Shown one piece after another: positions 1,090 through 27,200 of a stretch of DNA of 64,000 nt. Each line of letters begins with the position of its first letter. Positions within the stretch are counted from its first letter, which is position 1. The notes beneath the pieces were generated by a model. It had not been told where the DNA came from and made no database searches. It worked only from the letters and a program-made list of their open reading frames with translations. Source of the stretch: a virus; the IMG/VR virus record IMGVR_UViG_3300020455_000616. One strand, written 5' to 3'. The position numbers were made by a program, and so were the translations under genes.

Positions 1090-2319
1090 TCACTTCTTAG
1101 CTAATCCTGAAAGTGTCTTTAGATAGGCATTCATTGACTGTGAGCTATACTCATCAGCAACATCTACGCCCTCAGAAAGGGTTTCAGTTTTTGCCTGTGG
1201 AGAATTTCCTTTAGAAGGATAATAAGATTCCTTCAATGTCTCCAACTTCTCACGATATTCTGCGTCACTTTCAAACTCAACACTCTCTGCCAAGGAAGCA
1301 AGCTTCTCTTTTTGTGAAAGTGCCAAACCTTCAGACACTTCGGAGAATATCTCTTGAGCAACAGACTCAGCGAGTCTCTTATTCAATGTGATGTTCTTCT
1401 CGATCTGTTCGTTGAGTTTGGTTTCCATATCATCAAGTTTTTCTACCATATTCTCAAGGACATCATATTTATCTTCAGGGATTTGTACATAATGATCTTC
1501 AAAAAGCTTTTTCATGCCGCTTAAGAATGATTCAGTCATCTCTGCTTTAAGACCAGACTCGACTGCTAATTGGTTCTCTTGAACCCATTCATCAGCAACA
1601 TACTCAAGATAGGAATCAATTCGTTCTGTGATAGAACCACGAATTGCATCTACCTCTTCTACTAGTTTAGACTCGTAAGTCTCCTCGAAATTCTTTGTCA
1701 TCGCTTCTTTAACTTCAGATACTTTAGATCTGAGAGCGGCTTCAAAGATTGTACGAGCTTTAGATTGGAACTCTTCACTGAGTTCTTCTCCATCTAGAAG
1801 TGCAGCAACGTCTTCTTCAACGTCGATTAACTCTTCTTCTTCTGCTTCTGCTTCAGCAACTACTTCAGCAGATTCTTCTGCATCAGTTGCTTCTTCTTCA
1901 GCAACGACTTCTTCAGTCTCGGTTGACTCTTCTTCAGCAACAACTTCGTCTGTTGTTACTTCGTCTTCTGCGACAACTTCCTGATCGGCTTCGAGTTTCA
2001 CTTCTTCTTCCTCTGGAACATTGTTCAACTTTTTACCAACGCCAACATCAGCAGGTGATGATCCGTCTTTTTTACCTTTACGGTTAGTAACTACGTCCTT
2101 AACTTGCTTAAGTGTAGAACCAGGTGTTTTCAGCGCAGCTGAATTGTCATCAGGTTTGTAGTTAGTAGGTGAAGGACCGCCTAGGTCTTCCCATGACTGA
2201 GGTGTTCCCCCAGTGGTGAGCTTAGGCATTGGATCGCCAGCACTTGCGCCAGAATTGACCGCTGTCGAGGATTGCTTCGTGCCCGCTTCCATTTCCTGTA
2301 AGTTTTTGTCACTAGACAT
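1090..2319 (-). CDS. gp22: Prohead core scaffolding protein
   Basis: Acidic coiled-coil with FQSKARTIFEAAL and DSYLEYVADEWVQENQLAVESGLKAEMTESF motifs; lies between gp21 and gp23. Confidence 0.93.
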   Translation of the reverse strand: MSSDKNLQEMEAGTKQSSTAVNSGASAGDPMPKLTTGGTPQSWEDLGGPSPTNYKPDDNSAALKTPGSTLKQVKDVVTNRKGKKDGSSPADVGVGKKLNNVPEEEEVKLEADQEVVAEDEVTTDEVVAEEESTETEEVVAEEEATDAEESAEVVAEAEAEEEELIDVEEDVAALLDGEELSEEFQSKARTIFEAALRSKVSEVKEAMTKNFEETYESKLVEEVDAIRGSITERIDSYLEYVADEWVQENQLAVESGLKAEMTESFLSGMKKLFEDHYVQIPEDKYDVLENMVEKLDDMETKLNEQIEKNITLNKRLAESVAQEIFSEVSEGLALSQKEKLASLAESVEFESDAEYREKLETLKESYYPSKGNSPQAKTETLSEGVDVADEYSSQSMNAYLKTLSGLAKK

Positions 2320-2360
2320 TTGAGTTTTCTCCGAGTTTCTTATGAGTAGAAATCTATATT

Positions 2361-2368
2361 TATTTATA
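2361..2368 (-). promoter_or_regulatory. T4-type late promoter TATAAATA upstream of gp22
   Basis: Plus strand reads tatttata at 2361-2368. Confidence 0.75.
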
Positions 2369-2395
2369 CAATATTAAAATTTGTATGTATATATT

Positions 2396-3046
2396 CTATA
2401 GGGAGTTTAGGAAGTCTTGGAATAAACCAAGTTTTTGTTCTTCTAAATCTCTTGCCCTACTTGCACGTTCTATTTTAATTCGTGTTTGATTAGCGAGTCT
2501 TTCCTTTAGGAGTCCACCATCCCAAACCCACTCTTTTCCTTCCATAATACCTTGAACAAAGGCATCAGGTGCAGATGGATCAGCGACTATATCTGCAGCA
2601 GTAGCTAACATGAAGTCTTCACCGACTTCTTTATAACCCTTGGTATTATCCCTTAAAGAACCGATACCTCTAGAAGATACTCCTAAAGTTACCCCATCCT
2701 TCAATAGTGATTCTGCAATCTTACCCATAGGTGTAGATAAGATCTGAGCTTTACCAACGAAGTTTTTACCTTCTTGCCTAAGATCAGTGATCTTGTGTGA
2801 TACTCTGTCGAGGTTTACGGTAGGTCCATCTGGGTGACCTAATTCACCAAGAGCACGTCCTTTTTGAACGTAGTCCTTGTTATACCTGTTGACTTCCTTT
2901 TCCATTATGTTAAATGGATATAACCGACCATTGCGGTTTACCATTTCACTTTGAAGGAATACACCTTTTATAAAAAGATTCTTCTTACCACCAACCGTTT
3001 CAGTGATAATTTCAACAGATTCAATTTCTTCTCTTATGAGTTTCAT
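2396..3046 (-). CDS. gp21: Prohead core protease
   Basis: FIKGVFLQSEMVNRNGRLYP, GELGHP, LGVSSRGIGSL and DIVADPSAPDAFV motifs. Confidence 0.96.
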   Translation of the reverse strand: MKLIREEIESVEIITETVGGKKNLFIKGVFLQSEMVNRNGRLYPFNIMEKEVNRYNKDYVQKGRALGELGHPDGPTVNLDRVSHKITDLRQEGKNFVGKAQILSTPMGKIAESLLKDGVTLGVSSRGIGSLRDNTKGYKEVGEDFMLATAADIVADPSAPDAFVQGIMEGKEWVWDGGLLKERLANQTRIKIERASRARDLEEQKLGLFQDFLNSL

Positions 3047-3064
3047 CGGATCAATTAATCGCTT

Positions 3065-3078
3065 TATTTATTATTTAT
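3065..3078 (-). promoter_or_regulatory. Two tandem ATAAATA late-promoter motifs upstream of gp21
   Basis: tatttat at 3065-3071 and 3072-3078. Confidence 0.6.
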
Positions 3079-3082
3079 TGAT

Positions 3083-3274
3083 TTACTCTTCGCCAACCAC
3101 ATCAGCGGACTCTGATCCACCACTATTTACGAACGTAGTATTGATATCAGGTCTAAGATTTTCAATCTTTTCTGAAGATTTTGTGTAAAGGATGTCTTTG
3201 ATTTTATCAGTCACTTCTGCTGGTGACGCATCATTTACAACCATATCCAATAGTTCATCCATTGTCTTTAACAT
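3083..3274 (-). CDS. Small acidic hypothetical protein (possible head-core component)
   Basis: 63-aa ORF immediately upstream of gp21, with a CTAAATA motif just upstream; the start may be Met at 3262. Confidence 0.7.
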   Translation of the reverse strand: MLKTMDELLDMVVNDASPAEVTDKIKDILYTKSSEKIENLRPDINTTFVNSGGSESADVVGEE

Positions 3275-3287
3275 TAATTTACCTATC

Positions 3288-3302
3288 TATTTAGTCTAAA
3301 TA
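3288..3302. promoter_or_regulatory. Back-to-back divergent late-promoter motifs TATTTAG-T-CTAAATA
   Basis: Inverted repeat giving CTAAATA on both strands, between two divergently oriented ORFs. Confidence 0.65.
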
Positions 3303-3316
3303 TATCATGTGATATA

Positions 3317-3472
3317 ATGAATACGAACATGGGAAGCAAGAAACCTGATAAAATGTCTAAAATTGATACAGATTATCCTGGACCGTTTAACACACGTTCA
3401 GACAATGATGATGCAATAGCACATCTTGTCAATGATGGTAGATTCTACATTGAAGAAACAGAAGACGATTAA
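3317..3472 (+). CDS. 51-aa peptide (candidate radical SAM substrate/precursor), absent from the ORF track
   Basis: Hand translation: MNTNMGSKKPDKMSKIDTDYPGPFNTRSDNDDAIAHLVNDGRFYIEETEDD*. Its TAA overlaps the next ATG (TAATG at 3470-3474). An alternative start is Met at 3329. Confidence 0.7.
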   Translation: MNTNMGSKKPDKMSKIDTDYPGPFNTRSDNDDAIAHLVNDGRFYIEETEDD

Positions 3473-5205
3473 TGTCTAATAAAGTCTACTTATTTCAACC
3501 ACAACATGCAATATTCATTAAAGGTATAGAGAACTATTGGTTACCCTATGCTGCTGGATGTCTGTGGAGTTATGCATCTAAACATACTGAAGGTTTTGAA
3601 TTAGGTGAGATTATATTTAAAAGAGAAGATCCTTTTAAGATTTTAGATAGGATAGATGATCCAGTATTATGTGTATTCAGTACATACATTTGGAATGAGC
3701 AGTATAATTTATATCTTGCCAGACTAATTAAAAATAAATTTCCAGACTGTGTTATTGAATTTGGTGGACCTCAATCAACTAGAGGTTTAATAGAGAATGA
3801 TTTTATTGACTGTGTAATCTTAGGTGAAGGTGAAAAACCTATTGTTGATATTCTCAATAGAATTAAAAATTCATGTCACATAAAAGAGATTTATGAGAGA
3901 GAACAAATAAAGGAAGTTACGTATGAAAGTCCATATACTTCTGGTGTATTAGATAAAATCGTAAAAGATAATCCTAATTATCACTGGGCTACATTAGTAG
4001 AATCTACTAGAGGATGTCCTCATCACTGCACCTTTTGTGACTGGGGTACATGGATGGATAAGATTAAAAAATTTGATCTTACTCAAGTAGAAGCAGATAT
4101 TAACTGGATGTCTACTCATAAAGTAGGATTCCTAATGATGGCAGATGCAAACTTTGGAATATTTAAAGACAGGGATTTACTAATTGCAAGGATGCTTAGA
4201 AAGGCAGCAGACCATCCATTAGCAATTATAGATGATCTTACAGTACAATACACTAAAAATTCTACTGATGTTATCTTTGATATTAGTAAAGCATTAGGTC
4301 CATATGATAGAAGAGGGGTGACTATGAGTGTTCAAAGTATGAACTCACCAACTCTAAAAGCAATTAGAAGACAAAACAATACAATAGAAAAGGCAAAAAA
4401 ATTTGTTAAGAAGGCAAGAGAAAAAGGTGTTAATGTATATACAGAAATGATTCTTGGTCTTCCAGAAGAGACAGTAGAATCATGGAAAACTGGATTATGT
4501 GAGTTACTTGAGGCTGGTCAAGATAGCATTGACATATGGTTCTGTCAGGTATTTGGTAACACAGAATTAAATCTCAATAGAGAGAAGTATGGAATTAAAG
4601 TTGTTAATGCCACAGATTATGTCTCATTCACTAATAAAGAAGACTCTATTAAAGAAATAGTTGAGATTGTAAATCAAACAGATAGTATGACAACTGAGGA
4701 TATGATTGAATCATATCTATATGCTTGGATGGTTATAATGTTCCATATTAATGGATTTACTCATGTCTTATCTGAATACTCGAATTTATCATATAGAGAG
4801 TACTATGATAATATGTTTGAATGTCTAAGGAATGATACTGGTTTATTTGGAAATCATTTTAAGGAAATTAAAAAAAGAGTTACCACTTACCTAACTACGG
4901 GTCAGTTAATATCTGATAAAGATAAAGGTCATCTTTTAGAATTAAGTATGGGAACCGACTTTGATTTATTCTGGAATAATAAGACTGAAGTATTTGATTT
5001 TGTAAAATCTATTTTACCTGTATCTAAATCATTATTTGAACTACAACAAAAAACTGTTTATGATCCAAAAACAGAATATCCATTCACAATTATGCATGAT
5101 AAAGAGTTTTATATTATAGATAATCCTAGGAGTGATGAAGAACGTGATGATATATGGGTTCTTAAAAGAAAGAATCTTTTAAAAAACAAACTAATAAAAC
5201 CATGA
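3472..5205 (+). CDS. Cobalamin-binding-domain radical SAM protein (class B type), paralog 1
   Basis: CxxxCxxC motif (RGCPHHCTFCDWG); N-terminal B12-binding-like Rossmann segment (FSTYIWN...IEFGGPQ...ILGEGE); SAM-barrel motifs ADANFG, SVQS and MILGLPEET. Confidence 0.88.
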   Translation: MSNKVYLFQPQHAIFIKGIENYWLPYAAGCLWSYASKHTEGFELGEIIFKREDPFKILDRIDDPVLCVFSTYIWNEQYNLYLARLIKNKFPDCVIEFGGPQSTRGLIENDFIDCVILGEGEKPIVDILNRIKNSCHIKEIYEREQIKEVTYESPYTSGVLDKIVKDNPNYHWATLVESTRGCPHHCTFCDWGTWMDKIKKFDLTQVEADINWMSTHKVGFLMMADANFGIFKDRDLLIARMLRKAADHPLAIIDDLTVQYTKNSTDVIFDISKALGPYDRRGVTMSVQSMNSPTLKAIRRQNNTIEKAKKFVKKAREKGVNVYTEMILGLPEETVESWKTGLCELLEAGQDSIDIWFCQVFGNTELNLNREKYGIKVVNATDYVSFTNKEDSIKEIVEIVNQTDSMTTEDMIESYLYAWMVIMFHINGFTHVLSEYSNLSYREYYDNMFECLRNDTGLFGNHFKEIKKRVTTYLTTGQLISDKDKGHLLELSMGTDFDLFWNNKTEVFDFVKSILPVSKSLFELQQKTVYDPKTEYPFTIMHDKEFYIIDNPRSDEERDDIWVLKRKNLLKNKLIKP

Positions 5206-7043
5206 AGAACGTCTATATGTTCCAACCACAGTATGCTGTGGAAATAAGAAAAGAAGACACCTACTGGTTGCCTTATAGTGTAGGGTGTCTATGGAGTTAT
5301 TGTAGTCAGTTCAAAGATATTACAGATAACTTTGAATTAAAAGAGTTTATATTCAGAAGAGAAGATCCAGCAGATATATTAGATCGTTTAGATAATCCAG
5401 CAATATGTGCGTTTAGTTGTTATATTTGGAATGAACGCTATAATTTACATGTAGCTAAATTAATCAAAGAGAAGTATCCAGATTGTATTATTGAATTTGG
5501 TGGTCCTCAAGGAACAAAACATTTACTTGAGTATGACTTTATAGACACCATTATCATCTCTGAAGGTGAAGAGTCATTCTATGATCTTCTAATAAAAATT
5601 AAAAATAATGAAAGTATTGAACGACTCTATACTAAAGAGCGAATTGAAGTATTGGACTTCCCTAGTCCTTATCAAAGTGGTCTTTTTGATGATATCATTC
5701 AGAATAATCCTGATGTCATGTGGGCTATGACTATGGAAACTAATCGTGGTTGTCCACATATGTGTACGTACTGTGATTGGGGTGGAATGACATATCAGAA
5801 AATTAAAAAGTTTGACCTTGATAGAGTCAAACAGGACATTGAATGGGCAGGTAATCATAATGTTGGATTCATATTTAATGCTGATGCCAACTTTGGTATC
5901 TTTAGAGATAGAGATGTTGAGATTGCAAAGATGTTTAGAGAAGCAGCAGATAAAGGTAATTTAGAAGCAATCAATATACAGTACTCTAAGAACTCAACAG
6001 AAGTTGTTTTTGAGATTGCAAAAATAGTTGGTGACATTAGTAGAGGAGTCACTATAAGTGTTCAAAGTATGAATCAACCTACACTTAAGGCAATTAAAAG
6101 ACAGAATATGAAGGTTAATAAAATATCTGAACAGATAGAAAAAAGTAGAGAATATGGTGTTAAAACATATACTGAATTTATTTTAGGGTTACCTGAAGAG
6201 ACTTTAGATTCTTGGAAGGAAGGGTTCTCAAAGGTTCTTGAATGTGGTCAACATGAATCAATTGATATTTGGTTCTGTCAATTATTTGGTAACACAGAAC
6301 TCAATAGCAAACTATCAAGAGAAATGCATGGAATAAAAACTATCAAGTCAGAAGACTATGTTTCTTTTGGTAATGATAGAGATTATAACGGAGTAGTAGA
6401 GATAATAGAACTCATCTCTGAGACTAATACAATGACCAATGATGAATTGATTGAATCATACATGTATGGTTGGTTAATTGTTCAGTTCCATATTGCTGGT
6501 TATACTCAACTGATAGCAAAATACTTCCATTATAAGTTAGGAATATCTTATAGAAGATTCTATGATGCTTTATTTGATTATGTTAGAAGTAACAAAGGTA
6601 AACTAGGAGATCATTATAGAGAGATCTTTAATTCAGTTAATCATTACATGAAGACTGGAAAAATATTAGATACAGGTAAACATGGTCATACATTACATGC
6701 AGGAAGTTTTGCCTTTATGTTTAATAATAAAGAAGAGATCTTTTCAGAAGTAAAAAATATGATTAGAACATTACAACCAATGATTGAAGAATGGTGTGAT
6801 GTTAAATCTCCAATAGATGATAATATATTAGAAGCACAAAGATGCTTTATCTTTGATGAGAATATGACATACCCTCATACATTTAAATCCAACTATGATT
6901 TAAGTACATGGGAAGAGAAAGATATTGAATATCTTATTGATACTGAATTTAAAAATTTCGACAAAAATAACCCACATGAGGTCTTCATCTTAAGACGCAA
7001 AGGTCTACTTAAGAATCAGATGAAGGAACTATGTAAGGTTTAA
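5202..7043 (+). CDS. Cobalamin-binding-domain radical SAM protein, paralog 2
   Basis: RGCPHMCTYCDWG motif; same domain layout as paralog 1; ATGA overlap at 5202-5205. Confidence 0.88.
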   Translation: MKNVYMFQPQYAVEIRKEDTYWLPYSVGCLWSYCSQFKDITDNFELKEFIFRREDPADILDRLDNPAICAFSCYIWNERYNLHVAKLIKEKYPDCIIEFGGPQGTKHLLEYDFIDTIIISEGEESFYDLLIKIKNNESIERLYTKERIEVLDFPSPYQSGLFDDIIQNNPDVMWAMTMETNRGCPHMCTYCDWGGMTYQKIKKFDLDRVKQDIEWAGNHNVGFIFNADANFGIFRDRDVEIAKMFREAADKGNLEAINIQYSKNSTEVVFEIAKIVGDISRGVTISVQSMNQPTLKAIKRQNMKVNKISEQIEKSREYGVKTYTEFILGLPEETLDSWKEGFSKVLECGQHESIDIWFCQLFGNTELNSKLSREMHGIKTIKSEDYVSFGNDRDYNGVVEIIELISETNTMTNDELIESYMYGWLIVQFHIAGYTQLIAKYFHYKLGISYRRFYDALFDYVRSNKGKLGDHYREIFNSVNHYMKTGKILDTGKHGHTLHAGSFAFMFNNKEEIFSEVKNMIRTLQPMIEEWCDVKSPIDDNILEAQRCFIFDENMTYPHTFKSNYDLSTWEEKDIEYLIDTEFKNFDKNNPHEVFILRRKGLLKNQMKELCKV

Positions 7044-7656
7044 AGGATTCTATTGCCTCATCCCAAAGGATTCTGTGTTCGTAATCTTTATCCTTATCTA
7101 TTAAAGCAATAGTAATAGTAAATCTCTTGTCATCTGTAGGGTTATGAGAACTATGCAGAGGACCAACATTAATAAGACTAGAAGTACCAACATCAACTTC
7201 ATGTTCAAGAGTAGACTCTTCTGGTCTAGCAACTAATACTTTACCGTGATAGTGATCATCTGTTCTATCACCACCTGCTCGTGCATCTGTAGTACTAACT
7301 TCAAATGCTTTATCTGAAGACCACCATCTCATAGTACTTCCTTTAGCACCTATTTGATATATTATTTTTGCCCAAGACCAATCACCAATATTATCAGAAT
7401 GCACAATACCGTCCTCATGTGGAGGAGTATAAAAGAACTCTATCCAATGAGAACTATATCCCATGCTGTTTAACCACGGGAGAATTTTATCATTACCTAG
7501 ATCTTCAAATTGTAGTTGCTTATGGAATTGCAACCACCCCATACCTTTAGTTTTATATTTTGATACGTCTATGTTTGGAAGATAATCTGGTATATTTAAA
7601 AACCTATGAGCATTTTTCATCAAAGTCATGAATATTTTCTGAACCACCAACCGCAA
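7009..7656 (-). CDS. Cupin/double-stranded beta-helix protein, putative Fe(II) oxygenase
   Basis: H-x-D (GIVHSDN) plus distal His (GPLHSSHNP) and RFTITI strand. The real start is probably Met at 7620 (MKNAHR). Confidence 0.55.
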   Translation of the reverse strand: MRLVVQKIFMTLMKNAHRFLNIPDYLPNIDVSKYKTKGMGWLQFHKQLQFEDLGNDKILPWLNSMGYSSHWIEFFYTPPHEDGIVHSDNIGDWSWAKIIYQIGAKGSTMRWWSSDKAFEVSTTDARAGGDRTDDHYHGKVLVARPEESTLEHEVDVGTSSLINVGPLHSSHNPTDDKRFTITIALIDKDKDYEHRILWDEAIESFKPYIVPSSDS

Positions 7657-7969
7657 ATGGATTGTACTTGGAAGTTGCTATCTTGTACAACTTTTCATGA
7701 GTGCTTGGACCTTCATACTCTTGTCCATCTTCTTCATCAATAAACCAGTTTGTTTCTTCTTCTGATTTTGGGTTTTGTTCGATTAACATCATTTCAGTGT
7801 CTAACTCCAATCTACGTTCAGGTGGTGCATACTTATTCTCATTAGTTGCTATAGGCATACTATCATGAGGATGTGCAAGTTCGTTAATTACTCTATTCAT
7901 CCAGTCAGTGCTATCCTCATCTTTTTTTGATTTAAGAGAGAACCATTTTGATGGATTTAATGAGATCAT
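7604..7969 (-). CDS. Hypothetical protein
   Basis: 121-aa ORF starting 1 bp after the gp20 stop. Confidence 0.7.
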   Translation of the reverse strand: MISLNPSKWFSLKSKKDEDSTDWMNRVINELAHPHDSMPIATNENKYAPPERRLELDTEMMLIEQNPKSEEETNWFIDEEDGQEYEGPSTHEKLYKIATSKYNPFAVGGSENIHDFDEKCS

Positions 7970-7970
7970 A

Positions 7971-9623
7971 CTAGGTTAGCGTTGGTGCTTCAGGATCTAA
8001 GGGTGTTTTGCCAGATGCTCCATTAGTGTTATCTGGAGATTGACCTCCCATAGGTTCCATTGGTAATCCTGTCTCAGGATCAATAGGAGCCATTGGATCG
8101 GGTATAACACCCTGCTCAATCTCTTTTGCAATTAGTTTATCTTGCTCAATAATTTCCTCATCTGTTTGACGAAGGAACTTACGACGTACATAGTCCTGTG
8201 AATAATATTTACCAACATAAGGTTCTGCAGTCGCTGCAATATTAAGGCGTTCTGTCATTAACTCTGCTTCCTTCAGTTCGGAGAAGTGATTATCATATAA
8301 GAAGTCATATTGAATATGCTCCTCCATTTTATCCCAATCTTCTGGAGTTACAAGGTTCTTAAGTAAACACTGGGTCTTCAACATATCGTTGAACATCCTT
8401 GAGAATCTCTTACGTAATCTACCTACAAACTTAGTAAACTTAAGTTCATCTCTAAGGATCTCTGAGGATCTTCCTAGGTTAAACCCACCTTCACCACCTT
8501 GTCTTGACTCAGGCACGTTTAGAGATCTATACAACTTAGATTGGAAGTACTTAATATCTGCTAGTTCACCTAAGTTTTGTCCACCTGGTAGTGTAGTAAT
8601 CTCAGTTCCTCTACCTCCTTCTCTACGTGGTAACCAGAAGTCTTCCAACATAGACATAAACTTCTTGTCATCACGAATCTCTCCAGTACTTGCATCATAT
8701 ACCAACTTATTACGATAACGCATCATAACGTCACGTAGGTACTGCTCTGCCTTCATCTTAGGGAGATTACCAACATCAATGTAGAATATTCTTCTTTCAG
8801 GTGCTCTTGATAATCTGTAGATAACAAGAGAGTCCTCAATCATTCTTAATTGGTTGAGTGACTTAATTGCTTTGTGTAGATAGGATAATGTTGTTCCTTT
8901 ATTCCTATCAACCAATCCAGAGGTACAATATGAGATGGAATCTTTTGCAAACTTAACTCCACCACCAGATCCTTTACCTGGTTGTCCACCATAAGGTGCT
9001 ACATTTTGTTTTGGGTTATATACAAAATACTCTTTAATATTTGGGAATGGGGATGACATTGGATTGTCACGTCCATCATTCTGTTGTACACCACCACCTT
9101 TATCCTTCTTAGTTATTGATTCACGTACATAACGCATCTTCAATGCATCAATATACCTTAACTCCTGAATCCCATCATGTGGATTCTTTAAGTCAATTAC
9201 TTTATGGTAATATAATCTTCCATCAACATACCAATTTCTATAAATCTCATGACACTTTTTATCAAAGTCTAGAAGTTCAAGAACAGTTTTAAATTCTTCT
9301 CTTATCTTTTTCTTTAAACTATCTCCAGCATTTAAATTATCTAAATCTATCTGAACAGGACTATCGTTTAAATCACTAACTATTGCTTCATTGACAATAT
9401 CTTCAATCGCACCATCACATTCTGGATGTAATGCCATCTCTCTATATCTCTTGATGAGATCATATTCGGTTTTATAGACTCCTTCTATATCTACATAAGA
9501 ACCAAAAAATCCACTGGTTAAGTAATGATCAACTCCATCCTCATTTGATTGAGGTATGGGTGACACCACGCCAGGGGATTTTTTTTCGTTATCCTCAATA
9601 GAAAAGCCAAATAACTTCGCCAT
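7971..9623 (-). CDS. gp20: Portal vertex protein
   Basis: YRLSRAPERRIFYIDVGNLPKMKAEQYL and EDFWLPRREGGRGTEITTLPGG motifs. Confidence 0.98.
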   Translation of the reverse strand: MAKLFGFSIEDNEKKSPGVVSPIPQSNEDGVDHYLTSGFFGSYVDIEGVYKTEYDLIKRYREMALHPECDGAIEDIVNEAIVSDLNDSPVQIDLDNLNAGDSLKKKIREEFKTVLELLDFDKKCHEIYRNWYVDGRLYYHKVIDLKNPHDGIQELRYIDALKMRYVRESITKKDKGGGVQQNDGRDNPMSSPFPNIKEYFVYNPKQNVAPYGGQPGKGSGGGVKFAKDSISYCTSGLVDRNKGTTLSYLHKAIKSLNQLRMIEDSLVIYRLSRAPERRIFYIDVGNLPKMKAEQYLRDVMMRYRNKLVYDASTGEIRDDKKFMSMLEDFWLPRREGGRGTEITTLPGGQNLGELADIKYFQSKLYRSLNVPESRQGGEGGFNLGRSSEILRDELKFTKFVGRLRKRFSRMFNDMLKTQCLLKNLVTPEDWDKMEEHIQYDFLYDNHFSELKEAELMTERLNIAATAEPYVGKYYSQDYVRRKFLRQTDEEIIEQDKLIAKEIEQGVIPDPMAPIDPETGLPMEPMGGQSPDNTNGASGKTPLDPEAPTLT

Positions 9624-9647
9624 TATATTGTCTTAATACTGTGTATC

Positions 9648-9654
9648 TATTTAT
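9648..9654 (-). promoter_or_regulatory. Late promoter ATAAATA upstream of gp20
   Basis: tatttat at 9648-9654. Confidence 0.65.
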
Positions 9655-10256
9655 TATACCACAGGTGTACCTGTTTGGTCACCACCCTCTGCTTGCCAGT
9701 ACTGAACTTGGAATTCAACTGTATACTCTTCGATTGTATCAGATGTATCATATGATAGATCTATCTGAGATACATTCGTTGGGAATATATCGAAGAACTT
9801 GTAAGTTCTTAAAGGTAGTACGCTGTCTGCATCAGTGTTTTCTGTAGAGAATCTTGATTGTCCTCTACCTAACTGATAAACATAAGCATCGGTCATGTAT
9901 GAAGCAGGGTTTGTAGCACCAGTGTTGTTATCCAACTTACTGATCTGATTCATCCACTGCTCAAATGATGTTCTTAGTTTGAAGTCCTCATCATTGATGA
10001 TTGTAACAGTCCAAGTATCGAAGGTTCTGTCTCCAGCAACCTTTAAAATACGACCTCTGAACGGAACGTCAATTTGTGCAATATTAGAAGCAGGTAATGC
10101 TGCTGCCTTACACAAAAAACTGAAGGTATCATCATCCCATGCAATACTTCCTGCAGTAGGGAATGTTGGAATTGATACTTCAAATAGATTTGGTCTTGCT
10201 GCACCGCCTAAGAGTTTACTCTTAAAGTCGGAGATAGTCCTGATTTCTCTTGCCAT
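9654..10256 (-). CDS. gp19: Tail tube protein
   Basis: GGAARPNLFEV, FRGRILKVAGDRTFDTWTVTIINDEDF and IEEYTVEFQVQYW motifs. Confidence 0.96.
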   Translation of the reverse strand: MAREIRTISDFKSKLLGGAARPNLFEVSIPTFPTAGSIAWDDDTFSFLCKAAALPASNIAQIDVPFRGRILKVAGDRTFDTWTVTIINDEDFKLRTSFEQWMNQISKLDNNTGATNPASYMTDAYVYQLGRGQSRFSTENTDADSVLPLRTYKFFDIFPTNVSQIDLSYDTSDTIEEYTVEFQVQYWQAEGGDQTGTPVV

Positions 10257-10295
10257 TTTAGTTAGAATCCTCCTTAGTATTTAATCAATCAGTTA

Positions 10296-13091
10296 TCAAA
10301 CTCTACCAGCGACTTCTTCAAAGCTAACACCTGTACGTGTAGCAACGAAGGTCAGGGTGATGTAGTTGATCGACTTCGCAGGCTTCAGGAAGATGTCTGC
10401 TCGGAATTCATTATTATCAATTATGTCTGGAGTGTTGTTTGTCTCATCACAAATAACCAGATAATCGTAAATACCACGTTTTGCTTGAACATCACGTAGA
10501 TATGGTTCAACGATGTTAACGAAGTTTGCCCTCGTTACCTGATCGTTAAACTCAAAGAGTTGTGCCTGTGCTGCTCTTTCAAGTGCTTGCTCAACTGTCA
10601 AGAATAAACGACGAACGTTAATTCTATCAAATGCTGAAGCATATGCTAGTGCAGTCTTATCACCGAAGAGGATGATTCCAGTTCCAGGTGTATTAATTAT
10701 TGAGTTAATACGTGAGGAGTAAAGAATGTCTCTTTGTGCTTTCGTTGGGTTGTATGCAAGTTTGATTGCATTCTTAATTACGCCACGCTGCTGACCAGCA
10801 GGTGAGAACCAAGGATAAGCAACAAGGTTTGTACGACACATCAATCCAGCAATATCTGGGTTGCATGGAAGGTAACGGAACTTGTTGTTGAACCTATCGT
10901 AAGTATACTTGTAACCACTATCAAATATTGCATAAGAAGAAGAACTTAGTGGTCCGAAGAACTCAACTATGTTACTAGTTTGAACGATTGGGTCAGTAAT
11001 ATTAACTACTGTTCCTTTGTGTGGTGATATAACAGTCACACAATCTTTTCTAGACTCAGCAATACCAATTAGTTTGTTTGCTTTTGCCTGACTATCATTA
11101 AGAGAATTACAAGAAGGTCCCATTAATAGGTAATCTACTTGAACTTCGTCTTTATTATCAAAGAGGTTGTAAGCACCAATTAGATTTCCTAATTCTGCTT
11201 TAAGTCCACCAGCAGCAGTATAATTCTCACCATTTGTTAGTGAGTATGTAACTCCACCAATAGAACTGAAGGTGTTATCCTTAGCAACTCTGTTCCAGCG
11301 AGTGCTGTTTTGAGTTAATGAATACCATACTGTTGGTTGATCACCGTCTCCATATAGACTACCAGTAGTAGAAGGATTGAAGTAAGTTCCAGTAGGGAAT
11401 GTATTGTGGTAGGTATCGTTACCTTGACCTTGGTTAGCACCTGCGTAAATGTAATTAGAATAGTTGGCAAGATAAGACTTGTACCATGTCTTCTGTGGAG
11501 CATTTGCTTCAGATACAGCATCGGTTGCCTTAGAAAGGTTTAGATGCTTCTCTAGGATATTACCTCGGATACCAGTTAAAGTACCTGAATCGTCAACAAC
11601 GACAACGTGCATTTCATCATTTCTACCACCACGCTCTGCAGTGTAGTTTGATGTTCCTGGTTTTGGAGCAATGCTTCGCCAGAATACTTTAGAGTTATCT
11701 AATCCAAGTTCTTGTGAATTGTACCAATCATCAACACCAGCAACTAATACTCTGGAGTTTGTTCCTCCAACCTCTAGAACAACTTGGTCATCTCTAAGAG
11801 ATGCTGTGTTTAGTTTGATATCATCAGTAATTGATGTACCACCAATTCCTGCTCCGTTAATGGTAATTGTTGTTCCAACACCATATGCTTCACCAGGATT
11901 TGTTAGTGAGACGGTTCCAATACCACCACTTGCATCTCTGAAGACAGTGAATATTGCTCCAGTACCTTGAGCACTTGTACCTGATAGGTTAGTGTAAGTA
12001 CCACTAGAAGCAGATGGAACGCTAGTTGAAGATGTAAGTCCAACTGTGTTGATCTTACCTTGACTTAAATCAAAACCACCAACAGAAGTACCAGCAATGG
12101 AGACTGTATCTGTTACAGTGTATCCAACACCAGCATTTACAATGGTTGCAGAAGCAACACCACCAGTTGTACTATTTCTAGTAATAGTGAATGTAGCGTC
12201 AGAACCACCACCGTTAGTAGTACCACCAACTCCAACATAAGATTGGTCTTGCTGACCATTAATCTGAGATGAAGTGTTTATTCCTATAGTTGATATCGAG
12301 TCTTCTGGTGACATTACATCGCCGTCAGAGTCGAGAATTGTTAATCTTTGGTCTTTTAAGAACGAAGCATATGCACTATTTTCTGCATAGTTTACATATG
12401 TTTCTTTACCAGGTTCTGTGCCACCCGTAGAGACTCTGGATCGTATTTTGACCGTTAATGTACTAAGAGACGTTTCTGGAGCGTTAACTACTTGAGTAAC
12501 AACCCCTTTAAGATATCCATAGAATACAGAAGTGCTTCCTGCACCAGGAATTACTTGACCACTTATGTCAACCGTTACACCATATCCAACTGCTGCACCC
12601 ATATCGGTTACTGAAGTTGTTGCAATACCAATAACTTGATCTCCCAAGTCGTCAATATAGCAGACCTTCAGAGAGTTACCCCATCTTCCTGGGTTCTTTG
12701 CTGCATAAAGGAAGTTGGACGCTGCATCTATAAAATTAGTATTATAGTCGTCGAAGTTCTTTATCTTTGTGCTTGCTATTGCAGAAGTACCTACACCAAC
12801 GTTTGAGTTAGCTAAGTTATCGTCATCGGTTCGTATTACCTTAAGCACACCACCATAGGAGAGGTATTGTGATGCAGACATCCAGTATTCATACTGGGCA
12901 TCGTCATCATAAGGCTTACCGAATGTGGTAATCAGATCTTGCTCTGTGGCAATATTGATCGGTTCTAATACGGGACCAATTTCAAAAGGTCCAGCAATAC
13001 CTCCAATGTTGTCAAGAACGTTTTCCGCTCTACCTACCGTTAAGTCAACTTCTCTAGTCAGTACACCAGGAGATAATTGAGGAGTGGCCAT
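10296..13091 (-). CDS. gp18: Tail sheath protein with an internal insertion
   Basis: SPGVLTREVDLT N-terminus; WFSPAGQQRG, FDRINVRRLF and KPAKSINYITLTFVATRTG C-terminus. Confidence 0.96.
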   Translation of the reverse strand: MATPQLSPGVLTREVDLTVGRAENVLDNIGGIAGPFEIGPVLEPINIATEQDLITTFGKPYDDDAQYEYWMSASQYLSYGGVLKVIRTDDDNLANSNVGVGTSAIASTKIKNFDDYNTNFIDAASNFLYAAKNPGRWGNSLKVCYIDDLGDQVIGIATTSVTDMGAAVGYGVTVDISGQVIPGAGSTSVFYGYLKGVVTQVVNAPETSLSTLTVKIRSRVSTGGTEPGKETYVNYAENSAYASFLKDQRLTILDSDGDVMSPEDSISTIGINTSSQINGQQDQSYVGVGGTTNGGGSDATFTITRNSTTGGVASATIVNAGVGYTVTDTVSIAGTSVGGFDLSQGKINTVGLTSSTSVPSASSGTYTNLSGTSAQGTGAIFTVFRDASGGIGTVSLTNPGEAYGVGTTITINGAGIGGTSITDDIKLNTASLRDDQVVLEVGGTNSRVLVAGVDDWYNSQELGLDNSKVFWRSIAPKPGTSNYTAERGGRNDEMHVVVVDDSGTLTGIRGNILEKHLNLSKATDAVSEANAPQKTWYKSYLANYSNYIYAGANQGQGNDTYHNTFPTGTYFNPSTTGSLYGDGDQPTVWYSLTQNSTRWNRVAKDNTFSSIGGVTYSLTNGENYTAAGGLKAELGNLIGAYNLFDNKDEVQVDYLLMGPSCNSLNDSQAKANKLIGIAESRKDCVTVISPHKGTVVNITDPIVQTSNIVEFFGPLSSSSYAIFDSGYKYTYDRFNNKFRYLPCNPDIAGLMCRTNLVAYPWFSPAGQQRGVIKNAIKLAYNPTKAQRDILYSSRINSIINTPGTGIILFGDKTALAYASAFDRINVRRLFLTVEQALERAAQAQLFEFNDQVTRANFVNIVEPYLRDVQAKRGIYDYLVICDETNNTPDIIDNNEFRADIFLKPAKSINYITLTFVATRTGVSFEEVAGRV

Positions 13092-21257: not shown

Positions 21258-24200
21258 TTACGCTAATGCAATTGCCCTTAAGTCACGTATCCTTGGTGGA
21301 TATGCTTGATCTGTTCCAGTTCCAACAATCTTAATACTGAAGTATCTAAACTCAGGAAGATCGTCAACACTAAATTCATAATCTGTGAACGGAAGATCAT
21401 CACTACCATGAGCAAGAACATCCGTCTTAGGAATTTTCTTATCAGGTAGTCCACTGTTCTTAGCAATATCTTTGATTGCACCATTGACATCCAAATTATC
21501 ATATCCAGGGAATGGATAGTAAATTGGGTCTGATTCTAAATCATTTGATATTGAATAGAAGCATCTCAGATCACTAGAAGTATTAGTATATGCTGCCATC
21601 AAGACTTTAATCGAAGTAGCAGAATTTTCTAGTGTAATTGGTTTATTAGCATAGATGAACGCTGTTGGATCTTCTACGATTGTCGATGCTCTAGAATCAC
21701 CAGCATAATCGGTAATTGGAGCATTAACTCTGTTACTAATAAGAACCATACCAACTCTATCCAAGTCAATGACTGGAGAGATATCGCTATCTGAGGAAGA
21801 TAATGTAAATGTTACTTCCATAGACTTGTTACCAGGACGACTGTCTAAACGCTCAAGTTCATTGACTCGTGAGGCAATCATTCTAGGTGCATCAAGGTAA
21901 GTATCTTCTTCAATATTGATTGGAGTTGCTTCAGTCTCAACAAAGGACTGTTCAATACCATCAATACTTGTGGCAGTAGTATTCTTCATCTCTGCCTTAA
22001 TATTAGTATCTGGTAGAACCATTGTTTGAACAACAGGTCTTATTGCTTCAAACTGGATGTTTTGAGTTGCATGCATCTCTTCACCACCAGCAGACTTGGA
22101 TTCATTGATAAACAATTTAGGGAACCCAATTCCAGTACTACGATCTGTTCCATCAAGAGATGGGTTGATCTTAATGAAGTAAGAATCAAGAGTAATAGAT
22201 CTTGCAGGAGTAGCATCTTGAAGATCATGTGTCTTGTTGATACGTCTTAAGGATATTCCATTAATCTCATACTTCTCAACTGGTGTTTTAGATGGATAAG
22301 TAAACGGAGTTGTTTGATCAATAGATCTAGTAATTCCTGTTAACTGACCAGCAGCAATTCCAGTGTAGGAGATGATTTCATCATTAACCCTAATATAGCC
22401 AGGGTTAGTAGCAGCAACACCAACATTCTCAAAGGATTCAAATCCTGAAGTATTAGCAATACCAATAGCAGCAGAACTAGAATTTGAGTACTCTGCGGAC
22501 AGAGTAGTTATTTTAGTATCAGACTGTACATCAGCAATAATAACTTTGTTAGTGTCTTGATGCATACCGTGGTTCTTATGGTTCACTTTAATATGCATAC
22601 CATCTTCTTCTAAAGTACTTAGTGCATAATCACTAATGTTTACATCAGAACCAAATCCAACGGATACCATAGTGGTAATTCCCGTAGAAGGACTAACATA
22701 TTGAAGTGGTTTTGTACTACTAATTTCAAAGTCACCTTGAATATCATCTAGAATTAATTCATTAATTCCAGTAACTGCACCTAATGATAGTTGCATGTTT
22801 CTACCCAACTGATCATTACCAATTGTAGGTATTGATAGAACATCACCAACTTGATATCCAGATCCACCAGCATTAATGGTTGCAGCAATAGCAACACCAT
22901 TTACACCGTTAGATGTACCAACTGTAATGTCTGCAGTTGCATTCTTACCATTTCCACTAAAGGAGTCTAAAGATACACCAGTAAAGGTAAACTGAGAACC
23001 ATTAGTAGGTGTGTATCCAATACCAGCATTAATAATACTTAGATCACCAGTTGCAGAACCACCAGCACCAACATAATTTGCAGATGCATTAGCATTTTTC
23101 TGAATAACTGTATTTCCAAGAACTAAACCACTTGTGTTTACAAGATCATCTGTTGTTACAATAAGTTTCTTAGAATTAAATTCTAGAGAATCTTTAACCA
23201 AAGTAGCAATTTGGTTATTACCTTTTGCTAGTTCTGGGTTGTAGAATGATATTGTTCCAGAGTTTGAAGTAAAGTCAGCATGGTAAAGACTAAACTTAAG
23301 ATCTTCATACTGACTTGGGTTCCATGTTGAACCATTCTGCGACTTGAATAGAGATCCAAGACTTGGTTGTGCGGATACAACAACCTGTCTAGATTCTGGT
23401 TGCAGAAGAGTTGTAATGTCAACTTCACCCATTCTGGAGATCCAAACTGTATATTCGTTAGACTGTGATAGTAAAACGATACAATGGTCTGTCTTAGGTT
23501 CTAAGTAAACAGGTGATGGGAACTTAACCGTAGTAGGTGTTCCAGCATCTGCTGACTCAAAAATGTCTTTTGCCTCTACAATTGTTTCACCAAAAGGATA
23601 AACCTCTTCTGAAGGAACACCAGCAACCATCGGTCTCAACTGTACCGTTACAGGTAGCAGTGGATCTTTTGTTCTAAAGAAGATGTCTACTTGAGTTACA
23701 AAGAATCCAGCATCATTTTGAACAGAGAATGACTGTGCAAGAGGATCTTTACCGCCCCTTGCTGGTCTCCTAGGAGGCGTTGGGGGTGGTGTTGGGATTG
23801 GGGGTGGTGGAGGTGGAGGAGGGGGTGGTACTGGCCTAGGTGGTCTAGGTGGTGGAACCGTAATTATTAGTATCGGTGGTCTAGGTCTAGGTGGTGGCTG
23901 TACTGGTGGCCTTGGTGGTGGCGTAGGGGGTGGTGGGGGAGGTGGAGGTGGAGGTGGTAATGGTACTCTCGTTGTCTCATTACTTGTACTTACTGATTGT
24001 GTAGATGTAACATCTGTAGCAGCACGAGTTTCAGAAGCATTTTGTACATCAAACCTAGGTCTTCTAGTAGATCTGATAGTCTCCTGCATATTATTAATTG
24101 TACCTTGAGCAAAGTATGACTCTTCACCAAATGTTCCAGTCATTCCACCAATAGTACTATTAGTAGCATTACTTGTTAATCTGAATAACTTAGTTCCAAC

Positions 24201-27200
24201 TTCAAATGATGGGTTAGAAGTAATATTTGGATTAGGAATGAAGAATGATCCAAGAACTGTTCCTACATGATCACTGAATAATCTTATATTAGTAATTTCT
24301 GCTTCACCAGTAGCACTTCTAAGTCTCATTCCTGCTCTTATAAAACCACTATAAAGACCCTGTGTTTGGTCTGCTAGTGATACTGTATCTACGTTAACAA
24401 GAACTGAAGAACTTGAATAAGTTGCAGGAACTGTATATGACTCATCATAAGGACTTGTTGTAAACACGTCAGTTGGTGAAGCAATTGGTCCTAACTTATG
24501 GTTAGATGTTGCTACTCTAAATGATACTCTAGGAGTTGCTGCATTAGTTGCTGTAACTGTACCTGCAGCCATTGTTCCGTTAACAAGTTGACCAATAGTA
24601 AATGTACCACTAATCATCTTAACTTCGATTAATTTTGGTACAACAAATGCATTTACATCTTGACCATCAAAGAATCCATAAAGTCTTGTTAATGGTTTGA
24701 ACTTACGTCCTGTAAATTCTATGTTTCTAGACCTCATAAATGCGATGACTGAGGTACTTACTACCTTGTCTCCTTCATTTACAGTATCTGTTTGCTCACT
24801 AATTCTAAGTCTTTCACCTGCTCTGGTTGATGTACCAGTTCTAGTAGTAGTTGTAGTAGTTGTAGTCTGGAATGAGTTTGTAGTTACAATCTGACTTCCA
24901 TTATTTCTAGAATTAGATCCTGTTTGTATTCTATTAGAAGTGTTAGTAGAACTAGATCCAGTCCATGTAGTATTCCATGTACCCCATCTAACAGGTCCTA
25001 AACCAGTTTGTGGATCATATCCATCAAATTCTAACTGTCTACGGGTTTGAGTATAGTTGTCAACTTCAATTCTTTGTGGTTGAAGTCTAACTTGGTCTAT
25101 CCATATATCAGATGATGGGAATAGTACAATGTTACCTGTGTAAGTAGTTACAAGATAAGGAGTAACATTCTCAACTCTAGTAGCAAATCCCTGTACAATT
25201 CTTGGTGCATCTTGGTAATCTAGGGTTAATAATTGACCAGTTCTCTTAATACCATTTCCTATTAAGTCAGTAACAAATCTAGGATCAGCAGTTGCTGAAG
25301 CAGTTGTTCCTATACCAATTAAAGATCTAGAACCAAGCAATAAATCAACTTCAGTTGTATAGTGTGTTGGTCTTAATTCAAGATTTGATGGGTCAACACT
25401 ATTAGTTACCTTACCAAGTTTTAATTGAGTTGCAGTTCCTGAGAAGTTATCAACGTAAATACCAGATTTAAATCGTGTTAAACCAGCATTATCAGGAATA
25501 AACAGACTCTCAGTATTAGACTCTAGAAGAGAGAGTGCAGTATAGTACTCTAAGTTCTGGATTCTATCTTCCAATAATGCAATATCTTGCATCCTATATC
25601 TCTTATGAGACTTAAGTAATACTTCTATGTTCTCAGTATTACAAATATATGGAGGTAATTTACATAAAGCAACTTCCAATGCATCCTCAATGGGAATAGG
25701 TGGAACTGGTGTATCAGCAGGAATACCTTTAATTAGTTGGAATTGACCATTCTTAGTTAAATATATTCTATCAATTCTTGGTTGATAGTATGAATATTGA
25801 ATATTAATTGACTCATCAGATGCTAAAATATTCTTAGCGGAGTTTGTAGCATCAGAAAATACTCTTGCATTAAATTCAAATGGAGATACCGCAGTTGAAT
25901 TTAAATCAAAATTAGTTACTCTTGGTCTAATATCAATAATATCACTTAATCTTGTACCTTCTTTGACATCAGGTAATACACAATAATCAATTTGATCATA
26001 TGATGAAACTGTTGTTATATCACCATCATCAGTAGATGCATATTCTGCAGATTCAAAAATAACTCTTAATTTTTTCCTAGGATCTTTAGAATTAGGTTTT
26101 CTAATAAGACGAGCATAGTCACAAATAGTTTCTCTTTGTCCACTATCTAAACTAAATCTATCCATAATATTATTGTCACCAGGATCAAAATCATTAATAG
26201 TAGCAACTATACCACTCTCAACAAATTCAATTTGCTCATTTAATTCAAATCTTAAATCACTTAAGTATACAAATGCTGCTTTGGCACTGTTAATTCTTTC
26301 AATATAAAGACCTATTGCACCTGTTGTTTTACCAACAAATTCTTCACCAGCAATTAAGTCATCAACACGTCCAGTTGGACCATTCATGTTGAATACAGTA
26401 ACAGATGGAATTAATGGATCTGCAATACCACCAGACTCAAATACACCATAAACTTTAGTTACATCTGGTTCTCCAAGACAAATATCAGTATCCTGAACTC
26501 TTAAACCATAACCATAATTACCATAAGTTAATCCATCATTTAATGAGGTTGTACCAACACCAGAAGTTACTAATTTAGACTTATTAACAATAATTGAGTT
26601 AGTTCTTATTCTATTTTTAACTTTATTCTTAATATTAATTTTATTAAGAGTAGCAACTAATCTTGCAGATCCTGCAGTAGCAGATAATCCAAATATTCTT
26701 AATTCTCTACCACCATTTGTAAAACGTAATTTATCTGGTGTTAATTCTTCAGTAACACCTGCATCATTAGTTAAAACATATCTTTCTTCATCATATGCTA
26801 AGAATGTTTCATTCTGTCCTGCTTGTATAGTATTAGTAGCATTAGCAGTAATAGTTACATCATATTCTTTTCTAATTGTTATATTAGACTCTGTTAAATC
26901 AACATTAGCAATCCATGATTTAGGTAGTGGTGTGTAGAGACTATTATCTGTAGATGATTGGAACTTAGATCCAATTAATTCAAAATCAACTGGTTGAGCT
27001 GCTGCAGCAGGAAGACCACCATCACAAACACCTGCAACTGTAGTTATACCTGCAATAATAATATTATTATCATCAGTATAACTATCAACTACAGCAAATG
27101 TTCTAACTGTTGTTCCACCTAATAAAGGATTAGTAAATGATACTAAATCACCTGCTTTTACTTTATTCCTAAAACCACCATTAGGAACTGTAACTGTTGA

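Follow-up and report, generated by a model that had tools for sequence, protein, structure and literature searches.

A TokK-like radical SAM and oxygenase cassette among the head genes of a T4-like cyanomyovirus and its possible part in sugar tailoring

What would a phage do with radical S-adenosylmethionine (SAM) enzymes placed in the middle of its head-assembly genes? The window analyzed here, a stretch of 64,000 nucleotides of the IMG/VR virus record IMGVR_UViG_3300020455_000616, holds the morphogenesis region of a T4-like cyanomyovirus, and between its portal and prohead protease genes lie a 51-amino-acid (51-aa) open reading frame (ORF) and two radical SAM genes (rSAM1 and rSAM2), which converge on an oxygenase gene. 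The original prediction took this group for a late-expressed tailoring system acting on the small peptide, in the manner of a ribosomally synthesized and post-translationally modified peptide (RiPP), or on a virion protein. The explanation that we favor, with middling confidence, is a late auxiliary cassette of two C-methyltransferases and an oxygenase whose substrate is most likely a sugar or glycoconjugate, the sugar being read from neighboring genes.

Two TokK-like radical SAM proteins in a head-gene insertion

Both large proteins, rSAM1 (577 aa; plus strand, 3472-5205) and rSAM2 (613 aa; plus strand, 5202-7043), are radical SAM proteins, as first read, with the cluster motif CxxxCxxC (C-P-H-H-C-T-F-C in rSAM1 and C-P-H-M-C-T-Y-C in rSAM2) and scores of 62.6 and 52.6 bits against Pfam Radical_SAM (PF04055; gathering cutoff, 29.5). 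The claim of an N-terminal B12-binding domain needed more than the Pfam model, which stayed under its cutoff (16.1 and 21.5 versus 32.1 bits), but the N-terminal region of both proteins aligned with the crystallographic cobalamin (Cbl) domain of TokK from residue ca. 14 to 21 on, and the alignment, together with a full-length fold match, confirmed the domain. The class B (cobalamin-dependent) reading thus holds through homology to TokK and similarity of fold. Among PDB sequences, TokK (7kdx) matched rSAM2 with an E value of 5.5e-76 over residues 21 to 464 and rSAM1 with 1.8e-56, and the corresponding values for CysS were 3.6e-43 and 3.4e-30. The best NCBIfam model for both proteins was the KedN5 family (NF033712) of methylcobalamin-dependent C-methyltransferases, but scores of 143.7 and 179.1 bits against a cutoff of 700, over profile positions ca. 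17 to 403 of 624, place them outside this NCBI family as scored. PHROGs gave no match for rSAM1, rSAM2, or the oxygenase.

The AlphaFold (AF2) model of rSAM2, built from an alignment of 86 sequences (predicted local distance difference test [pLDDT], 93; predicted template-modeling score [pTM], 0.92), matched chain A of 7kdx in Foldseek with template-modeling (TM) scores of 0.87 (TMq) and 0.81 (TMt) over 679 columns. Sequence similarity to TokK ends near residue 464, and the fold match covers the C-terminal domain as well. CysS followed with a TM of 0.75, OxsB and TsrM, the next cobalamin-dependent radical SAM structures, with 0.47 to 0.49, and MgmA with 0.43. Two tryptophans, Trp76 under the corrin and Trp215, are common to TokK, ThnK, and CysS and absent from other characterized cobalamin methylases (bioRxiv 10.1101/2021.07.10.451909). 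In rSAM2, W76 (in CYIWN) and W193 (in CDW) align with TokK W76 and W215, rSAM1 keeps both YIWN and CDW, and across the family of 86 sequences W76 is invariant and W193 nearly so. We therefore assign rSAM1 and rSAM2 to the cobalamin class and, structurally, to the TokK/ThnK/CysS subgroup of sequential C-methylases, with cofactor use predicted from sequence and model.

Characterized enzymes of this type attach one to three methyl groups, one after another, to a carbon that is not activated. In the reaction, Co(I) receives a methyl group from SAM, a 5'-deoxyadenosyl radical takes a hydrogen from the substrate, and the resulting substrate radical accepts the methyl group from methylcobalamin. To our knowledge, the subgroup is small and known only from antibiotic pathways. 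Since TokK binds cobalamin base-off and His-off (bioRxiv 10.1101/2021.07.10.451909), host pseudocobalamin should, by analogy, serve as cofactor for the phage enzymes.

The third enzyme, encoded on the minus strand (orf215; 7009-7656), had been described as an HxD...H cupin or oxygenase, and this description stood. H77, D79, H159, and R169 are invariant in 40 homologs, forming an HxD...H motif with an arginine ten residues after the distal histidine, and the AF2 model (pLDDT, 89) has the double-stranded beta-helix fold. It came closest to 7v4p, a nonheme hydroxylase from the pathway of a nucleoside antibiotic (Z, 9.1), and to the proline 3-hydroxylase 1e5r (Z, 8.9). Most of the top 50 fold matches were 2-oxoglutarate (2OG) oxygenases, together with some small cupins, and the Foldseek TM values of 0.3 to 0.38 indicate that there is no close relative. 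No match was found in the Pfam, NCBIfam, or PHROG libraries, and of the Atlas clusters with a name, Asp_Arg_Hydrox and 2OG-FeII_Oxy_3 came nearest, with a score of only 0.89. By its residues and predicted fold, orf215 is a double-stranded beta-helix oxygenase of the Fe(II)/2OG type. The TTG at 7656 is probably not its start, because homologs begin near the ATG at 7629 or 7620, either of which would give a protein of ca. 203 to 206 aa.

From left to right, the gene order is gp22 scaffold, gp21 protease, a 63-aa gene, the cassette, a 121-aa gene, gp20, gp19, and gp18, the flanking genes all being on the minus strand. On the left, the cassette is bordered by the gp21 prohead protease gene (2396-3046; Peptidase_S77) and the conserved 63-aa gene (orf63; 3083-3274), and on the right by the portal gene gp20 (7971-9623; Portal_T4, E value of 6e-195). 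All four ORFs that had been described were recovered between gp21 and gp20, as were their chaining through TAATG (3470-3474) and ATGA (5202-5205) and the 35-bp convergent overlap of rSAM2 with the oxygenase gene (7009-7043). They include the only substantial plus-strand genes of the window, all other plus-strand ORFs of at least 100 aa being nested in longer minus-strand genes. The tail/fiber part of the module contains two giant minus-strand ORFs of 2564 and 5564 aa (21258-28952 and 30588-47282). The Prochlorococcus phage P-SSM2 represents the empty site, with gp21, a 61-aa gene, and gp20 and nothing between them, and the block is also absent from a close single-cell virus record. For this reason, 3275-7970 is an insertion of ca. 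4.7 kb, reversed relative to the head genes and low in GC (28 to 34% versus ca. 40% in the flanks).

Conserved and exchangeable parts of the cassette

A total of 39 related loci were collected, 37 from a scan of IMG/VR and two from public assemblies (L038 and L039). The cassette adjoins gp20 in every locus that retains a flanking gene, with gp21 on the opposite side wherever that edge is visible. The index of the assembly collection lists a close ortholog (P0010; 71% identical) in 88 blocks, with contigs as long as 258 kb. The number of radical SAM copies per island varies from one to three. In a quick IQ-TREE search with SH-aLRT support only, all copies adjoining the oxygenase or portal gene formed one tight clade (26 rows), copies in the upstream slot fell into at least four divergent clades, and all phage copies stood together against the remote outgroups. 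Paralogs within one island share 49 to 64% identity in the cofactor domains and 24 to 29% in the last ca. 140 residues; in TokK, the C-terminal domain lines the substrate channel (bioRxiv 10.1101/2021.07.10.451909). With a ratio of nonsynonymous to synonymous substitution rates (dN/dS) of 0.07 for rSAM2, the sequence comparison identifies this enzyme as the core step, conserved in all islands, and rSAM1 as one of several exchangeable accessory paralogs. Two islands have three methylases each: a third paralog of 525 aa, highly divergent and shorter at the C terminus, lies upstream of a glycosyltransferase family 25 (GT25) gene in both (L016:3851-5428 and L028:3739-5316).

A tblastn search with rSAM2 of 50,697 phage records returned a single match, from a gut phage (24% identical), and none from a cyanophage; the same search with the oxygenase returned nothing. 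The isolates in this collection therefore do not have the cassette. Nor did searches of the literature on cyanophage radical SAM or cobalamin enzymes and on phage B12 radical SAM enzymes and sugars turn up an account of it. A paper on pelagimyophages mentions uncharacterized "radical SAM cassettes" in host-recognition clusters.

The 51-aa ORF (plus strand, 3317-3472; 47 aa if the ATG at 3329 is used) encodes an acidic small protein and is, by its substitution pattern, a real gene, with a dN/dS of 0.05 against its counterpart in L002 (11 synonymous differences and 4 in nonsynonymous codons). This ratio rules out a decaying pseudogene, although the length of the ORF is graded across islands (115, 66, 51, and 0 aa). 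We also considered a remnant of the GT25 gene and found no similarity to it.

In the RiPP-like system that had been favored, this ORF would be the precursor modified by both methylases and the oxygenase. In favor of this, TAATG couples its translation to that of rSAM1, selection on it is purifying, and class B radical SAM enzymes methylate peptides in other systems. However, the gene does not follow the enzymes. Within the window's clade, it is present in L001, L002, L006, L008, L010, and L013 (51 to 115 aa) and absent from L003 to L005, L009, and L011, that is, from 5 of the 11 closest islands with a visible upstream edge, all five of which keep both enzymes; one rSAM1 allele was even found both with and without it. 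The more distant islands all have a GT25 gene in its place. The conserved core of the small ORF, YP.PF.T.SDNDD.IAH, corresponds to an inner stretch of a cyanophage protein family of 190 to 330 aa with DUF3310 at its end (phrog_21972), and 55 of the 60 IMG/VR loci with this motif have no radical SAM gene within ca. 4 kb; one of these 55 lies on the contig of L011 itself, away from the island. Pfam detected neither a RiPP recognition element nor a SPASM domain in the system, and the RiPP models rSAM_ocin_1 (35.8 to 35.9 bits versus a cutoff of 281.85) and ApyD (34.8 versus 750) scored far too low. Our survey of peptide and enzyme co-occurrence thus yielded no conserved peptide, and the nearest characterized relatives of the enzymes are small-molecule methylases (TokK, CysS, and the KedN5 family). 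Because the small ORF is not tied to the enzymes, whether judged by its absences, the shared allele, its DUF3310 family, or the loci free of radical SAM genes, we reject this reading as extremely improbable. From its sequence relationships, the 51-aa ORF is a short member of the DUF3310 family, an optional passenger and a bystander to the enzymes.

The opposite border of the island has a comparable gene, orf121 (minus strand, 7604-7969; phrog_4639), which encodes a small protein, belongs to the inserted block in the window's clade only, and is not present at the empty site of P-SSM2. Homologs of orf121 are found near DUF3310 genes on other contigs, at ca. 1.5 to 3 kb from full-length members of the family in L056, L058, L071, L072, and L076. 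Both genes look like passengers acquired at the island borders and may come from one other cyanophage region.

Candidate substrates and timing of expression

The gene that replaces the small ORF provides the first clue to the substrate. At all 20 loci outside the window's clade with a visible upstream edge (18 from IMG/VR plus L038 and L039), the operon opens with a GT25-like gene of 300 to 318 aa that overlaps the first radical SAM gene. It matched the glucosyltransferase phrog_2835 with an E value of 2.8e-33 and, by tblastn, 98 phage records, many of them annotated as GT25; the Pfam GT25 match was weak (E value, 0.14). The window's clade has lost this gene. Sugar genes also accompany remote homologs of the methylases (33 to 45% identity), in all six contexts that were read, with phage genes present in several of them. 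They encode nucleoside diphosphate (NDP)-sugar epimerases/dehydratases, a short DegT aminotransferase, a sugar nucleotidyltransferase (NTP_transferase), glycosyltransferases of family 2 (GT2), and a uridine diphosphate-sugar dehydrogenase, and in two of the contexts fused double methylases lie directly behind a GT2 gene.

These fused cobalamin radical SAM proteins, with two full enzyme units per chain, measure 1283 aa (L042:10001-13852) and 1271 aa (L048:10001-13816). The surroundings of the former contain five more radical SAM genes, four of them with a B12-binding match, as well as a DegT gene and a carbamoyltransferase gene, and the latter sits beside ORFs of 1720 and >4309 aa.

In species-representative genomes, at least 498 cellular relatives were confirmed among the 600 matches listed, spread over many phyla at 29 to 41% identity; no close match from the presumed hosts appeared among those listed. 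Among the best 80 of these relatives, 39 have an epimerase/dehydratase, DegT, or GT2 match within 10 kb, with 12 of the 33 epimerase matches falling within 1 kb and DegT occurring in 18, all counts being taken without a matched random-window control. A rate of almost one DegT gene per four 20-kb windows exceeds by far the background of a few copies per genome. Pfam confirmed nine of the neighbors. In a Haliscomenobacter metagenome-assembled genome (L116:4385-5927), we also noticed an epimerase and short-DegT pair that is 59 and 48% identical to the pair beside the methylase in L041 and L043, contigs that carry phage-type genes (a family B DNA polymerase in L043); the sequence similarity points to a mobile sugar-tailoring cassette common to both or to a prophage. 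Because of the GT25 gene in the distant islands and of the NDP-sugar, DegT, and glycosyltransferase genes beside remote homologs, we consider C-alkylation of a sugar or glycan the best reading of the cassette.

The homologs offer a second set of neighbors, since remote phage homologs also lie near genes for GTP cyclohydrolase I, PTPS, HIT, PRA-PH, and nucleotidyltransferase proteins, which would fit a substrate other than a glycan, be it a pantetheine- or coenzyme A-tethered metabolite, a secondary metabolite, or a precursor for hypermodification of DNA or nucleotides. In TokK and CysS, the Cbl and C-terminal domains form the channel that takes up the pantetheinylated substrate, and the phage model has the same three-domain fold; decoration of DNA by phage glycosyltransferases is also known. 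However, no island contains a gene for a carrier protein, a nonribosomal peptide or polyketide synthase, beta-lactam formation, or other scaffold building, two papers on glycosylated phage DNA make no mention of radical SAM or B12 enzymes, and expression from a late promoter is a poor fit for the synthesis of DNA precursors. We therefore regard a nonglycan small molecule or nucleotide as an unlikely substrate.

Late expression, which had been proposed for the cassette, gained support from the promoter motifs. Back-to-back late-promoter-like boxes occupy 3288-3302, where TATTTAG (CTAAATA on the minus strand, serving orf63) is followed by one T and by CTAAATA on the plus strand, serving the cassette; of the 16 related loci shown, 15 keep an element of the form TATTTAG-N1-2-[CA][TA]TAAATA ahead of the first plus-strand gene. 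These [AC]TAAATA boxes match the core of the T4-type late promoter, TATAAATA. The minus strand of the window has 19 copies of the heptamer, typically 9 to 48 nucleotides upstream of gp22, gp21, orf63, gp20, gp18, and other starts, and the plus strand has a single copy, at 3296, just upstream of the cassette, so that, judging from this motif, the cassette is probably expressed late. Given its strand asymmetry, the heptamer also provides a usable late-promoter map of the window, marking many structural-gene starts. No late box of their own was found for the oxygenase gene and orf121, which abut gp20 and are, on that account, probably cotranscribed on the gp20 late transcript. An extended -10-like sequence, TGATATAAT (plus strand, 3310-3318), overlaps the first ATG of the small ORF and is conserved in L001, L002, L006, and L010. 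It is a candidate element that could add sigma-70 transcription, in which case translation would start from the ATG at 3329; a scan for sigma-70 promoters and terminators performed no better than on shuffled sequence. Rfam, at its gathering threshold over 2300-10300, gave no cobalamin riboswitch and no other RNA.

The late-type promoter, together with the position between the portal and prohead protease genes, would also agree with direct modification of a virion or prohead protein, that is, C-methylation of side chains plus hydroxylation with no sugar involved. The fold neighbors of the oxygenase include protein hydroxylases (proline 3-hydroxylase, AspH, NO66/YcfD, and FIH), the window's island has no glycosyltransferase gene, and the methylases of methyl-coenzyme M reductase are a precedent for C-methylation of protein side chains. 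The closest relatives of the methylases by both sequence and fold, however, are small-molecule enzymes, and the protein- or peptide-modifying references all fall far lower (32 to 35 bits for the glutamine methylase model, 36 bits for rSAM_ocin_1, and the TM of 0.43 for MgmA). Moreover, the homologs adjoin NDP-sugar genes and not structural genes, and no candidate target protein was found to covary with the island. A protein target seems quite unlikely to us.

Several observations weigh against a sugar substrate shared by the three enzymes. Besides the uncontrolled neighborhood counts, there is no glycosyltransferase gene in the window's island or anywhere in its 64 kb, so the link to sugars rests on relatives. 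Neither TokK nor CysS, the relatives with solved structures, works on sugars, their substrates being small molecules tethered to pantetheine, and the location in the head module fits a protein target equally well. Arg280 of TokK, the anchor of the carbapenam carboxylate, is Asn in rSAM2, from which it follows only that the substrate differs from that of TokK. The oxygenase, for its part, is absent from five islands (L020 to L022, L029, and L032), and paralogs with 44 to 48% identity are found elsewhere in cyanophages, in regions that have no radical SAM genes. For these two reasons its link to the methylases is frequent and not obligatory, a loose partnership.

If the substrate is a sugar, it would be either activated by a nucleotide or already transferred to a glycoconjugate. 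rSAM2 would carry out the core methylation step and a swappable enzyme of the rSAM1 type would perform an accessory step on an unactivated carbon, with host (pseudo)cobalamin as cofactor. The oxygenase, whose joint role we infer, would probably hydroxylate the same substrate or its acceptor, and the product would be an unusual C-alkylated glycan made late in infection. A bolder version, in which late B12-dependent radical alkylation builds methyl, ethyl, or isopropyl branches on a glycan carried by the virion or its proteins and swapped methylases diversify this decoration in an arms race with hosts, is speculative and we think it improbable. Were it true, this would be the first radical SAM/cobalamin chemistry in virion maturation and would create a new demand for (pseudo)cobalamin during infection.

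The islands amount to a phage-specific radiation of TokK-type enzymes that occupies the most conserved stretch of T4-like cyanophage genomes and is found widely in viromes of oceans and lakes. An alkylated sugar or modified virion component as product would mean a new kind of tailoring of phage surfaces or products. The favored reading, if true, would also place the many 2OG oxygenases and GT25 genes that are orphans in cyanophages in a substrate context, tie phage fitness to the pseudocobalamin supply of the host, and bear on the unexplained cobS genes of phages. For enzymologists, the swapped paralogs with their divergent C-terminal domains are a ready specificity series.

Comparison with known systems

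The closest characterized systems are TokK and ThnK, the sequential C6 methylases of carbapenem pathways (7kdx and 7kdy). They share with the phage enzymes the N-terminal Rossmann cobalamin domain, the radical SAM core, and the large C-terminal domain (full-length TM of 0.87 for the rSAM2 model), as well as CxxxCxxC and the two tryptophans, Trp76 below the corrin and Trp215 following the cluster motif. On the other hand, the Foldseek identity to TokK is 24%, Arg280 is replaced by Asn, and no sequence alignment extends into the last 150 residues, while the phage genes are duplicated and swapped and have no carbapenem genes nearby. CysS, the iterative methylase that converts methoxy to alkoxy groups of cystobactamids (9n1b), belongs to the same subgroup by sequence (E value, 3.6e-43) and fold (TM, 0.75). 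Unlike CysS and KedN5, the phage genes lack the context of an aromatic-acid or enediyne pathway, and the KedN5 scores were 144 and 179 against 700.

GenK and GenD1 are class B radical SAM methylases of aminoglycoside pathways that use cobalamin to C-methylate a carbon of a sugar, the type of reaction that we propose for the phage cassette. The substrates of GenK are pseudo-oligosaccharide antibiotics and not phage products. The tryptophans of the TokK type are absent from GenK (bioRxiv 10.1101/2021.07.10.451909).

Within cyanomyoviruses, the nearest likeness is to clusters of GT25 and 2OG-Fe(II) oxygenase genes such as that of the Synechococcus phage S-SCSM2R (PQ898602). The GT25-like gene of the related islands is 26 to 37% identical to annotated GT25 genes of cyanophages, which alternate with genes for 2OG oxygenases, a DegT-like aminotransferase, and a further radical SAM protein. 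These clusters lie outside the structural module and have no cobalamin enzyme of the TokK type. The S-SCSM2R cluster (L040; PQ898602, 224246-243052) is an extended series of GT25 and GT2 genes, among which lie those for 2OG oxygenases, an amidinotransferase, a small SPASM-type radical SAM protein, and the DegT-like aminotransferase, which is annotated as "AHBA synthase." The published S-SCSM2R paper called three genes of this cluster "antibiotic synthesis genes"; judged by its gene context, the cluster looks like one for sugar tailoring.

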